Part shown: one piece after another, positions 24,447 through 52,043 of the stretch | Layout: each line of letters begins with the position of its first letter | Numbering within the stretch: position 1 is the first letter of the stretch | Origin: an uncultured virus (IMG/VR IMGVR_UViG_3300042868_007713) | Lineage: Duplodnaviria; Heunggongvirae; Uroviricota; Caudoviricetes | Direction: 5' to 3' (one strand) | DNA: 55,723 bases | IMG/VR virus record: IMGVR_UViG_3300042868_007713 | Notes under the pieces: generated by a model | What the model was told of the DNA's origin: nothing | The model's database searches: none | What the model saw: only the letters and a program-made list of their open reading frames with translations | Program-made: the position numbers and the translations under genes

Positions 24447-24665
24447 TTAAAGTAAATTTTTAAAAGCTTCATGTATATCAAAATCTTTTTCTTGATAATC
24501 ATCAGCAATCATATTATCAATACTAAAACTATCATCTATGTAATTGTCATCAGTTTCTTTAAGAAATATAGATAAAGCTTTAGTTACTGCTTCTTGAAGA
24601 TTTTCAGCTTCAACATTAAATCTTTTGTATGATTCCCAAACTATTGGAATTGAATAATTTTTCAT
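24447..24665 (-). CDS. Hypothetical protein
   Basis: Small ORF overlapping the thioredoxin stop. Confidence 0.55.
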   Translation of the reverse strand: MKNYSIPIVWESYKRFNVEAENLQEAVTKALSIFLKETDDNYIDDSFSIDNMIADDYQEKDFDIHEAFKNLL

Positions 24666-25965: not shown

Positions 25966-26391
25966 TTAATTGTTTTTATTTTTTCTTTCATTTTGTGTTT
26001 TAATATGGTGACATGAATTTTCACCATTAGCACATAATACTTGTAATCCTCCAGCTTCACAAAATAGTCTTTCAACAAATTCTGGAAGATCATTAGCACA
26101 GTTAAGTGCACCCGCAGGTATTATGTGATCAATTGCTATATCTTTATCTTTAAACCATTTTTTACAATAGTTACATTGAAATTCCCATTTTTGTCTTTTT
26201 AATGGTCCTACATATATTCTTCTAGCATTTTGTTTACATTCTGTAACAGGTTTCCACCATCTAGATTTTTGTCTTAATGCTGATCTTATAAATGACCAGA
26301 ATGCTGATTCAGTTAATGTACCAGAATTTCTAGTTTTAGGTGCAGCACCTTTTCTTGTTTTTATAACTTTTGATTTTTTAGCTTTTGCCAT
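25966..26391 (-). CDS. HNH-type endonuclease
   Basis: CNYC...IDHIIP...LQVLC...CHHIKT; probable start at MAKAKK. Confidence 0.8.
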   Translation of the reverse strand: MAKAKKSKVIKTRKGAAPKTRNSGTLTESAFWSFIRSALRQKSRWWKPVTECKQNARRIYVGPLKRQKWEFQCNYCKKWFKDKDIAIDHIIPAGALNCANDLPEFVERLFCEAGGLQVLCANGENSCHHIKTQNERKNKNN

Positions 26392-27361
26392 TGTCAAATG
26401 ATTTATTTATTAGAGGAACAAAAGTATAAAATACTTTTTTAAAACCATAATCTTTTATACTATCACTTATATCTTTGCTTAAAGGTAATAAGAATATATT
26501 AAAATTATATAGCTCTTTATATTTTTTCATAGCTTTTATACCAGCTTCATCATTATCAAACATAACAGATATGTTTTTATATTTTTCCATTAGCTCTGTT
26601 ATAATTTCTTTAGAAATCATTGTGTTCTCACTGTCAGGAGCTATACAATCAAAATTTAATTTTAAACTTTTAATAGACATAACATCTTTTAAACTGCTGG
26701 TAATCAACAAGTTATGATGATTTTCTAATTGGTCTAAACCTTGTATATAAGAATCCATTTTTAAAAATTTCTTATTACTTCTTGGTTGATATATTTTATA
26801 TAAACTACCATCTTCTCTAAAATAACCATAAGTGTATTCATTAGATATTGTAATACTTTCTAATACACCTTCATTATCTTTTTCTAGTGTATAATTTTCT
26901 AAAGGTTTTACATTATACTTATTTAAGATGCTTGTACCAATATTATATCTTAACCAAAAATCAGCATCTAATTTATTCCAAGATCTAATTTTATAATTTC
27001 CTACTTTAAACTTAGGACATTCTTTAACTTCAAGTTGTTTGTATTCTTTATTGTTCTTTAAATAGTTTTTATAATCTTCTATAATTTTATTAGCTGCCGG
27101 TACATAAGGAAGTTTAAATAATTCCATTACCAAATTAATAGCACTACCAGATTTACCAGTGGAAAAATCTTTATATTTATATAATTTTTGAGTATTATCA
27201 AAATATATACACATGCTTGGTGTCTTATCATTAGGATTAAACAAACTTTTTATTTTTTCAGTTTGTCCAATTAAAGAATTATTTAAATTACAATAATTTT
27301 CAAAAATCCATGTTACAGGTACTTCTTTATAATCAATAATTACATTTTTTGTAGTAAGCAT
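26378..27361 (-). CDS. DNA primase (DnaG-like, TOPRIM)
   Basis: N-terminal FNPNDKTPSM...YKDFSTG (degenerate CHC2 region), SSLKDVM, MFDNDEAG, KDISD. Start moved to the ATG at 27361 because the TTG at 27394 falls inside a terminator stem region. Confidence 0.85.
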   Translation of the reverse strand: MLTTKNVIIDYKEVPVTWIFENYCNLNNSLIGQTEKIKSLFNPNDKTPSMCIYFDNTQKLYKYKDFSTGKSGSAINLVMELFKLPYVPAANKIIEDYKNYLKNNKEYKQLEVKECPKFKVGNYKIRSWNKLDADFWLRYNIGTSILNKYNVKPLENYTLEKDNEGVLESITISNEYTYGYFREDGSLYKIYQPRSNKKFLKMDSYIQGLDQLENHHNLLITSSLKDVMSIKSLKLNFDCIAPDSENTMISKEIITELMEKYKNISVMFDNDEAGIKAMKKYKELYNFNIFLLPLSKDISDSIKDYGFKKVFYTFVPLINKSFDNGKS

Positions 27362-27378
27362 ATTAGTATATAGGTATA

Positions 27379-27602
27379 AAATAAAAAGGAGCAATTTAGC
27401 CCATATTGAGGCCTTTTAAAAATTTGCAAACCATTGACAAACAATAGTTTTACCTCTTTTGGCAAGTGTTATTTGTTTTATTTGAGCCCTTGCTGAGCCC
27501 TTTAAAAAAATACACCGTTCCAACGCCTGTTAAACCTAATTTATCAATCCATTCTGCTTTTAATTTGCCAAAATACCTTGTAGCAGTAGCTCCTTTTTAT
27601 TT
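27379..27602 (-). terminator. Intrinsic terminator split by an insertion
   Basis: 14-bp perfect inverted repeat aaataaaaaggagc (27379-27392) / gctcctttttattt (27589-27602), 196 nt apart. Confidence 0.65.
27401..27590. mobile_element. 190-bp foreign insertion flanked by TAGC direct repeats (non-autonomous element or att-like remnant)
   Basis: About 35% GC (66/190 by hand count). TAGC at 27397-27400 and 27587-27590. Removing it restores ggagc-aattta-gctcc. Carries internal direct and inverted repeats. Confidence 0.55.
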
Positions 27603-27620: not shown

Positions 27621-28277
27621 TTAAAACATATCAAAATCACTACCACTTGATTGTGGTTCAAATGATTCTACTGATTCTGCTTGTTTTTTAACTTCTCCAA
27701 CAATATGTTTGCTTTCATTAAATGTTAACACTGTATCTTGAGAATTAGAAATTGCATATTTTTTGTTATCCATTTTTGGTAAAAAACAGTCATATGCTAC
27801 ATAACCTTCTTTATTTGTATATGCTTTACCACCAACACAGAAGTTTAAGTATGTATCATTACAAACTACTCTTTTTGCATTTTCTACAAATTCTTCAATA
27901 GTATCTGCATTAACTTCATCTAAAGCATCTATTGTATTTTGACAAATAGCAATAGTTTTTAAGAATTTTAAGATATTATCATCTCTATCTACTTTATTAC
28001 CGCTAGGTAATACTTTTGTTTCATATGCATATTGAGAACTTCTAATTCTTCCTACTTGACCTTGGTGTCTACCTTTTGATTGGTTTGATGGATCAATAAA
28101 GAAACCTTCAAAATTTTCTATAGGTTCTGTTTCAACCATAAGAACTAAATAATAACTTTCTGGATTATAACCTGGTTTTAAAGCTAAGTCATAAATCTTA
28201 CCTACTGTGTTTCCTGGAGTAATTGCTTTGTTTAATTTTGATTCTCCTGTTTTGATGTTTTTTGTGCTTAATGCCAT
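27621..28277 (-). CDS. Putative single-stranded DNA-binding protein
   Basis: Lies between an AAA recombinase-like gene and the primase; acidic/aromatic C-terminus SGSDFDMF. Confidence 0.5.
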   Translation of the reverse strand: MALSTKNIKTGESKLNKAITPGNTVGKIYDLALKPGYNPESYYLVLMVETEPIENFEGFFIDPSNQSKGRHQGQVGRIRSSQYAYETKVLPSGNKVDRDDNILKFLKTIAICQNTIDALDEVNADTIEEFVENAKRVVCNDTYLNFCVGGKAYTNKEGYVAYDCFLPKMDNKKYAISNSQDTVLTFNESKHIVGEVKKQAESVESFEPQSSGSDFDMF

Positions 28278-28302: not shown

Positions 28303-28986
28303 TTAATTTTCGTAGTTTATTATTGCTTCTTTTACAAAGTTTAAATCATTTGGAATTGTTGGAGTTTCAAACATACCTTTAGGGGATTTGCATGTATTGT
28401 CTCCTGAATTCTGTGTTTCAAATATATACGTTATGTTACCGTCTTTATCTTTTTTTACTTTTGAAAATAATACTATAGTAAATAAACCTTCTAAAGTTAA
28501 TTTATCATCTACTAATTTTCCAATTGTTTTTGCTTTAAATCTTTTTCTGTTTTCAATATCTACACCTTCTTCCATATGATTCATAAAGAATATTAATAAA
28601 TCATCTCTTAAAATCATAGGTAACTTAGATAACCTAGTTAATGTAGCTCCTATTTGTGTAAATTTTTCATATCCTTTTTCATCAGATCTTTCAAAAAATT
28701 CAAAAGATGAAATATATTGAAAGTCATCAATGATAATATTCTTTATTTCTGGTCTTTTTTCAGAAACATATTTTAAACATGCTTCTATACTTTTAGAATT
28801 AGCTGACTTAAACATATTACCTGTTGGATTATCTTTAGTCCATTCCACATAATTTTTTTTCCATCCTTTAAATGATAAAGGTTTTGATGCAACATTTATT
28901 ACAAATGTTTCTTTTGGATTTAATAATTCAATACTAGTTGATTTACCTGAACCTGATTCCCCTACAATTAATACTCCTTGTGCCAT
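28303..28986 (-). CDS. P-loop ATPase (AAA_24 / Sak4-like)
   Basis: GESGSGKS, IIIDDFQY, KTIGKLVD, KSPKGMF...IPNDL. Confidence 0.82.
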   Translation of the reverse strand: MAQGVLIVGESGSGKSTSIELLNPKETFVINVASKPLSFKGWKKNYVEWTKDNPTGNMFKSANSKSIEACLKYVSEKRPEIKNIIIDDFQYISSFEFFERSDEKGYEKFTQIGATLTRLSKLPMILRDDLLIFFMNHMEEGVDIENRKRFKAKTIGKLVDDKLTLEGLFTIVLFSKVKKDKDGNITYIFETQNSGDNTCKSPKGMFETPTIPNDLNFVKEAIINYEN

Positions 28987-51883: not shown

Positions 51884-51899
51884 ATTTTTTAATTTTTAG

Positions 51900-52035
51900 T
51901 AGTCAGGACAGGATTTGAACCTGTAAATAAGCAAGCATTTGTGGAATTTACCATACGGCTATATCCTTGCTTCACCTTTCATATCCATAAAGGACACCTT
52001 CAACGTGTGCGTCTTTCCAATTCCGCCACCTGACT
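51900..52035 (-). ncRNA. Expanded tRNA-like RNA (136 nt; possible Ser-TGA anticodon loop)
   Basis: Acceptor stem AGTCAGG/CCTGACT+A; D arm GCG-GAATTGGAAAGA-CGC; T arm ACAGG-TTCAAAT-CCTGT; enlarged central region; no encoded CCA. Confidence 0.75.
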
Positions 52036-52043
52036 ATTATTAT

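Follow-up and report, generated by a model that had tools for sequence, protein, structure and literature searches.

An uncultured crAss-like phage was found to carry, inside a terminator-like hairpin, a short piece of bacterial DNA, and the origin of that piece from the end of a bacterial gene, one of Schlafen-ATPase-wHTH type, is almost certain. Judged from sequence, the repeats within it are likely binding sites of the wHTH protein encoded by that same gene. The full reading favored here, in which a bacterial gene end was joined at microhomologies, its repeats are bound by that protein and the phage keeps the DNA as a decoy against a nuclease predicted to act on phages, falls just short of an even chance; given the binding, a decoy benefit to the phage would be somewhat probable. 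Neutral capture is the main rival of the decoy reading.

The window (the whole stretch of DNA that was analyzed, 55,723 nt) is included in a 117.7-kb phage record that is 98% complete, and its primase is kin to those of crAss-like phages. The hairpin and its insert have a 218-aa gene on one side and the primase gene on the other. They lie in a cluster of replication genes on the minus strand, which also encodes a DnaB helicase, an HNH nuclease, a polymerase and a Sak4-like annealing protein (Table 1). The 218-aa gene had been called SSB; Pfam and PHROGs searches returned no match for it, so the assignment stands on its position beside the Sak4-like gene and its acidic tail and has no family match behind it.

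Table 1. Features at the hairpin site and in its neighborhood, with positions in the window.
Feature	Position	Strand	Basis or remark
5' arm of terminator-like hairpin, phage DNA	27589..27602	-	Empty allele forms a 14-bp hairpin, -17.3 kcal/mol
3' arm of hairpin with U-tract, phage DNA	27379..27392	-	Inverted repeat and relatives
Bacterial DNA captured by the phage (186 unique bases), from a Schlafen-ATPase-wHTH gene (3' end) and its downstream spacer	27401..27586	-	176/186 columns identical to L016
Dead remnant of donor frame (wHTH recognition helix and wing)	27477..27593	-	Profile match E 3e-13, family positions 411-449
Repeat site 1, AAGGGCTCA, likely wHTH binding site	27494..27502	-	Sequence, family comparison
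Repeat site 2, AAGGGCTCA, 11 bases after site 1	27483..27491	-	35-nt deletion relative to donor within the site 1-2 pair
Repeat site 3, AAGGCCTCA, 76 bases after site 2	27407..27415	-	Sequence, family comparison
Repeat site 4, altered by one letter at the junction; weak 4-bp hairpin before U-tract restored	27396..27404	-	
Imperfect palindrome in 76-base spacer	27428..27450	.	One change in each full phage allele
Upstream junction, 5-base microhomology AGCTA, donor and phage target	27587..27591	-	Alignment
Downstream junction, 3-base microhomology GCT, inside fourth repeat	27398..27400	-	7/10 letters alike around it
Upstream gene, 218 aa, SSB-like by position only	27621..28277	-	No family match
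DNA primase gene, downstream	26378..27361	-	Related to crAss-like phage primases
Sak4-like single-strand annealing protein	28303..28986	-	phrog_2872, E 1e-63

The original prediction was of a foreign insertion in a terminator-like hairpin with an empty allele elsewhere, and it was borne out by comparison and by the bacterial donor described below. The perfect 14-bp inverted repeat (27379-27392 and 27589-27602, arms 196 nt apart) was verified, as were the letters of the TAGC copies at 27397-27400 and 27587-27590 and the G+C contrast (34.7% in the insert, 24.5% in the window). Seven of the 32 inverted repeats of at least 12 bp with arms within 400 nt reach 14 bp; such a repeat alone is thus not rare here, and the proof of insertion is comparative. 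Thirteen IMG/VR loci were found via the upstream protein, and six have this same hairpin. Five of these, all close relatives (L001-L005), are empty and match the predicted empty-site allele exactly; the sixth (L012) is filled at junctions identical to those of the window allele, from which it has 12 differences. The other seven loci comprise six with a different short hairpin and no insert and one that ends at the gene. A scan with the hairpin-arm pattern matched at least 120 loci; among the matches listed, four came from this phage group and no new allele type appeared.

Both junctions were bridged in independent contigs. The junction at 27590 was bridged by contigs of all four independent lake runs examined, in one of which a contig (X9) covers the whole stretch; the junction at 27400 was bridged, with at least 31 letters on each side, by X9 alone among the four. 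The insertion is a natural polymorphism, not an assembly error. Runs holding the insert (24 listed, from 22 studies) are lake and freshwater metagenomes dating from 2016 to 2024, and the contigs examined came from 2019, 2022 and 2024. Five of the 24 are a possible source of the record, and none of these five was among the four runs examined. There was no RNA run among the listed holders, which has no bearing on expression.

Several further differences were recorded in the same genomes. L012 has a 21-base in-frame deletion near the start of the 218-aa gene (window ~28230-28255), and L003 and L012 are without the 72-aa gene found at 24447-24665 of the window. In L002, 134 extra bases with a small open frame follow the HNH gene (L002:5115-5249, window ~25975). 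A second non-coding gap of the phage genome with raised G+C (37%, 160 bases) lies at G000:C1:113884-114043 (window 51884-52043).

A metagenome scan showed that one contig (L016) natively contains the entire insert at 95% identity; 10 of 186 columns differ, and 35 nt between two of the repeats are deleted in the phage copy. In L016 a gene end with HATPase_c_4 and HTH_24 is followed by a spacer and then by a type IIG restriction-modification gene. HATPase_c_4 and HTH_24 are the only domains in the fetched part of that contig, and a full-length relative (L019/L024, 89% identical) has SLFN_AlbA_2, HATPase_c_4 and a C-terminal HTH all present. The domains of the donor family (PF04326, PF13749 and PF13412) are often encoded beside restriction genes, and the Ex4ExK nuclease motif is kept in nine of nine full-length relatives inspected. 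The closest relatives belong to Bacteroidota and Chlorobiota, in keeping with a crAss-like phage. The exact donor may be other than L016, and the shorter layout, without the 35 bases, is also natural in hosts (L197, L203). In the allele of L012 the remnant of the donor frame is interrupted by a stop codon. The only solved structural relative of the donor protein is 3LMM, itself uncharacterized. An AlphaFold model made from a five-row alignment was poor (mean pLDDT 45.5) except in the winged helix, where the eight variable residues fall in the third helix.

BLAST searches with the insert (GenBank phages, PLSDB plasmids) and with the donor gene end (GenBank phages) gave no match, and the central 20-mer of the insert had 0 matches in GTDB. 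The repeat-pair pattern had 10 matches in IMG/VR, namely the L012 contig, an intact donor-type gene (L065) and eight without visible link. L017 and L020 were rejected as short chance matches.

With a donor in hand, the possibility of a non-autonomous transposon (IS110/IS1111-like or MITE) targeting hairpins becomes nearly negligible. It would agree with the precise insertion, the 4-base repeat and the stem-loop target, and a tiny element moved in trans to hairpins had been the starting proposal. The insert is instead native coding and intergenic DNA of a bacterium, with no second site; in L016 and the GTDB relatives the segment is part of an open, conserved reading frame and not an insertion. 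Terminal inverted repeats are absent, as had been stated, with only weak A+T-rich internal pairs seen, and both alleles have one shared deletion and one pair of junctions. The same two ends were found nowhere else in the phage's own genome, GenBank phages, plasmids, GTDB or metagenomes; the sole other copy, in IMG/VR, is that of L012, at the same site. The reported absence of a transposase or integrase was upheld for the tyrosine integrase and IS110 transposase, neither of which was found in the 98%-complete genome. A 6S/SRP-like RNA, a group I/II intron, an IS200/IS605 or IS607 end and a bridge RNA (for which no guide-like match was seen by eye) had also been considered and were moot once the donor was found.

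The junctions point to microhomology. AGCTA at one junction and GCT at the other occur both in the donor and in the empty target. What looks like a 4-base duplication (TAGC) therefore has counterparts in bases already present at both ends of the donor segment, which favors microhomology over a target duplication made by a transposase. The left boundary of the insert cuts through the helix-turn-helix reading frame, within the recognition helix; an end inside the recognition helix of a conserved frame means that the segment is not an element in its host. Both full alleles have the same junctions and the same deletion, so one capture explains them. In the route proposed, a phage of this lineage, while infecting a Bacteroidota host, would have made a single capture through annealing at these microhomologies, perhaps with the neighboring Sak4-like protein as the agent.

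Within the insert, four AAGGGCTCA-type repeats have starts 11, 76 and 11 bases apart, which is the natural layout in L197 and L203. To place them in the family, 112 loci were examined and 71 kept; those dropped had no donor-like C-terminal helix (32), too little downstream DNA (3), were duplicates (5) or were unaligned (1). A 7-mer with at least three copies around the stop codon was present in 67 of the 71 genes, as against 3 of 68 control windows inside genes. The commonest spacings are 11, 9 and 76, and most arrays are bare trios at the stop codon. A second subfamily (L040-L049, L054) was noted that has tandem peptide-coding repeats before the HTH and none at the stop codon.

The repeated word goes with the recognition helix, in the sets SKATA-GGCTCA, SRNTA-TTGCAC, SRETA-TTGCG, TDRTA-TGTCGG and QTLSS-TTGTTC, with few exceptions. 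The same word was shared in 359 of 722 comparisons between near-identical helices and in 142 of 3700 other pairs. On a tree of 65 N-terminal parts (quick IQ-TREE) the minimum number of changes is 9 for the GGCTCA word and 5 for TTGCAC. Near-identical sisters on this tree carry different helix-word sets, which indicates that helix and repeats move as one module. As the two lie within about 100 bases of each other, linkage alone could give the covariation. Binding is the likely reading, given that all copies change together and that their spacing is helical.

The phage copy has decayed, and the repeats have been spared. Relative to L016, 16 variable sites were counted in the two full alleles and the contigs examined, and 15 of the 16 are changes from G/C to A/T. 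The 32 repeat columns contain none of these sites (P 0.042; for G/C sites alone, P 0.012), in a post hoc test on two full alleles and one contig variant. Between the window allele and that of L012, 12 of 186 insert sites differ; for four-fold sites of the primase gene the count is 2 of 67 (L004 was left out of the latter comparison). The pattern is one of neutral decay around spared repeats, from few data.

These figures bear on the view that a stretch of host DNA entered through microhomology by accident and is simply tolerated, which we consider somewhat unlikely. The excess of G/C to A/T changes is in its favor, as are an insert divergence at or above that of silent primase sites, the stop in the remnant frame of L012 and the emptiness of most relatives. 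Against it stand the sparing of the repeats, the fact that no other G+C-rich repeat with 11-bp spacing was found in the 117.7-kb genome, and the persistence of the filled allele in runs of 2016-2024 despite its disruption of the 14-bp hairpin; a second phage, described below, whose array is trimmed to the first and last repeat, also counts against it. For such recurrence, a neutral account would suppose that bound protein shields the stretch from degradation or that the repeats recombine easily.

The insert also changes the hairpin in which it sits. The predicted energy of the local hairpin before the U-tract goes from -17.3 to -4.5 kcal/mol, so read-through into the primase gene may rise, much as had been suggested for transcription from the upstream gene called SSB. 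That the insert serves as a regulatory change, either by weakening termination before primase or through a host protein that binds there and tunes read-through, is nevertheless unlikely. The site does lie between co-oriented replication genes, but any insertion would have this effect, and the choice of DNA and the non-coding array of the second phage (G001, below) would be left unexplained. The insert has no Bacteroidota-type -7 promoter word.

Because the outer arms can pair around the insert, a functional structured RNA had been suggested as well; in such a case the transcribed strand would form a rod that joins the terminator arms or acts alone. The phage alleles do fold as rods, with z -4.4 when the arms are included and -2.5 and -3.4 for the two inserts by themselves, and the donor letters already form 57 of 60 and 59 of 62 of its pairs with no change that breaks a shared pair, a count that is circular since the structure came from the alleles. 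The fold is not conserved in the donor family: z was -0.06 for the donor region and -0.4 to -2.5 for ten relatives, and pairing follows anyway from the palindrome and from the self-complementarity of the repeat word. Rfam gave no match over the insert up to E 10, and tRNA and tmRNA scans found none. An RNA function is accordingly rated very improbable, and since the donor region is without the rod, the fold is taken as a by-product that possibly makes the insert tolerable.

A second phage (G001) bears directly on the choice between the decoy reading and neutral capture. Its record has portal and virion genes, with a portal 21% identical to that of the window phage, and a long non-coding gap in which a GGGCTCA array extends over 98 nt from the first repeat to the last. 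The array is identical at 91 of 98 positions to one in a Flavobacteriales MAG and is absent in relatives L299, L320 and L281. It was captured independently of that in the window phage, and the presence of the same repeat type in a second, distant phage makes it probable that the repeats act as a DNA decoy. No Schlafen-ATPase gene was found in the 24-kb G001 record, which is 35% complete, so that a gene is possible in the rest. In a further phage (G002, 94% complete), in which no Schlafen-ATPase gene was found either, a TTGCAC series is joined to four GGCTCA copies; each of these arrays matches a bacterial gene-end type over about 30 bases, and the two types differ. Five phage records, three of them incomplete, were searched for a Schlafen-ATPase-wHTH gene, and it was found in none; G000 and G003 have the captured gene fragment only.

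A broader scan of IMG/VR for TTGCAC-type pairs gave 44 loci, which fall into 12 groups; no family gene end lies beside any of them. Seven groups (32 loci) are non-coding, and all seven have further copies within 200 bases; the other five (12 loci) are inside genes and may be chance. Words of the other types occurred 21 times in 2940 nt near the 44 viral matches and 63 times in 13993 nt for comparison; they are not clearly enriched, so the simpler arrays could not be assigned to this family with confidence. The long-array pattern was found in two IMG/VR contigs only, those of G001 and L012.

Two side observations were made among these loci. At L279:449-478 a three-copy TTGCAC-type array lies in frame inside a small phage gene and agrees with a bacterial gene-end trio at 29 of 30 letters. 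A series of short non-coding modules, made of palindromes and repeats such as TACCCGAA and TACCGCTCGGTA, is common to three phage groups whose flanks are unrelated (L278, L281, L299, L320, the L280 group and the L284 group); these modules are present, absent or swapped between relatives and look like a collection of protein-binding sites.

In GTDB, four of five matches to the G001-type array are without an intact gene and have kept the array and gene scraps. In one such gene-less bacterial copy (L325) the left boundary is that of the phage insert, within a 5-base ambiguity. This point lies some 130 bases ahead of the array, and in a genome that is nearly identical (L329) the gene is intact. 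This shared boundary may reflect a hot spot, coincidence or assembly error. In L326, L327 and L328 the arrays were kept after internal deletion of the Schlafen-ATPase gene and adjoin an apparent AbiE-type operon.

The boundary of L325 suits an account in which host mobile DNA has an attachment-like end or a hot spot of breakage at the array, so that a host enzyme would excise pieces with this left end and these would insert at other places. So do the three further gene-less copies beside the apparent AbiE-like operon and replication-type genes, and the flanking of a palindrome by repeats, a layout like that of the arm and core sites of integrases. Against this account, the boundary falls within a conserved helix, the right ends differ and the G001 array ends elsewhere; many arrays lie inside restriction operons, and the prevalence of bare trios at the stop codon also weighs against it. 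We regard this account as quite improbable.

Under the decoy reading, the winged helix would bind the gene-end repeats, and in the host, docking on its own gene-end array would keep the nuclease quiet. Degradation of host DNA by a phage, or loss of the locus, would remove the array and release the nuclease; the array copies of the phage, whose number would rise as it replicates, would titrate the protein once more. Since arrays are kept by phages, and by hosts after loss of the gene, an inhibitory role of the array appears to fit better than an activating one; an array that activated the nuclease would make a decoy harmful. Several findings were counted against the decoy: five of the six hairpin-sharing relatives do without the insert, its non-repeat part decays like neutral DNA, the fourth repeat was altered by the junction, and beyond the two contigs with a long array the other words show no clear enrichment. 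The wider generalization, that one of the most common Schlafen architectures of bacteria has a gene-guarding winged helix, for which the repeats are a DNA antitoxin and helix plus repeats a specificity module exchanged as a unit, and that phages collect such arrays as decoys, is put forward tentatively and is doubtful as a whole.

If that generalization were true, non-coding decoys with several specificities side by side would amount to gene-free anti-defense that is missed by gene-centered screens, and a decoy function in itself would mean that phages can counter defense with captured non-coding DNA. Gene-end repeats taken by phages point to the HTH ligand and the control logic of HisKinase-HTH Schlafen proteins, and a concrete partner is offered for some of the operator-like arrays found in the non-coding DNA of phages. 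Should the capture be neutral, it still marks the host of this uncultured crAss-like phage as one of the Bacteroidota.

Among known systems, IS1111/IS110 elements and MITEs insert exactly into stem-loops with a short shared core. The insert resembles them in its exact placement in a hairpin with such a core and differs in having no element-like ends, no second site and a donor of ordinary coding DNA.

In the literature covered (titles and the starts of abstracts, with few subscription journals), there was no description of this family's gene-end repeats or of their capture by phages. The donor family shares domains and motif with the Schlafen HisKinase-HTH proteins of PMC13056530, which correspond to the Schlatpase with C-terminal HTH of bioRxiv 10.64898/2026.05.29.728809; the phage has the gene end only and no intact gene. 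According to the parts of PMC13056530 covered, HisKinase-HTH fusions make up 19.2% of prokaryotic Schlafen proteins, the Ex4ExK nuclease motif is defined there, and histidine-kinase-type fusions were among the architectures tested in E. coli, of which only two others gave defense; this too counts against the decoy reading, and neither tRNA cleavage nor phage defense is shown there for the HisKinase-HTH class. In the related SLFN-pAgo, as described in the covered part of bioRxiv 10.64898/2026.05.29.728809, the same Schlafen-ATPase unit cuts tRNA and is held inactive until its sensor changes state; for the HTH class the proposal is that such a sensor would read the end of its own gene. The same parts of these two sources contain nothing on gene-end repeats, the HTH ligand or phage capture.

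Capture of a host antidote has a precedent in phiTE-F, whose genome took up toxI repeats of its host through recombination (PMC3475682, in the part covered). As in that case, a phage would have acquired the repeated nucleic-acid antidote of a host defense by recombination. There the antidote is an RNA, ToxI, which counters ToxN, and its capture took place by way of long homology under selection in the laboratory; the present evidence points to double-stranded DNA sites, to capture in nature and to microhomology of 3-5 bases. The other parallel is aba, which the covered part of bioRxiv 10.1101/2020.07.13.199331 describes as 63 bp of DNA that overlaps the 5' end of bstA, has direct repeats and confers prophage self-immunity. 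The array is likewise a short DNA that overlaps a predicted defense gene and has direct repeats. In the account given there, aba is cognate for one protein, protects the phage that carries it and acts in trans when multicopy; the word follows the recognition helix here, which may reflect a similar pairing, although helix and repeats are tightly linked. Unlike aba, the array lies at the 3' end of a Schlafen-ATPase-wHTH gene, encoding an unrelated protein, and has been taken by phage records that are without the gene. The partner is thus not BstA, and the likeness is one of how the array may work, by analogy, rather than of membership.
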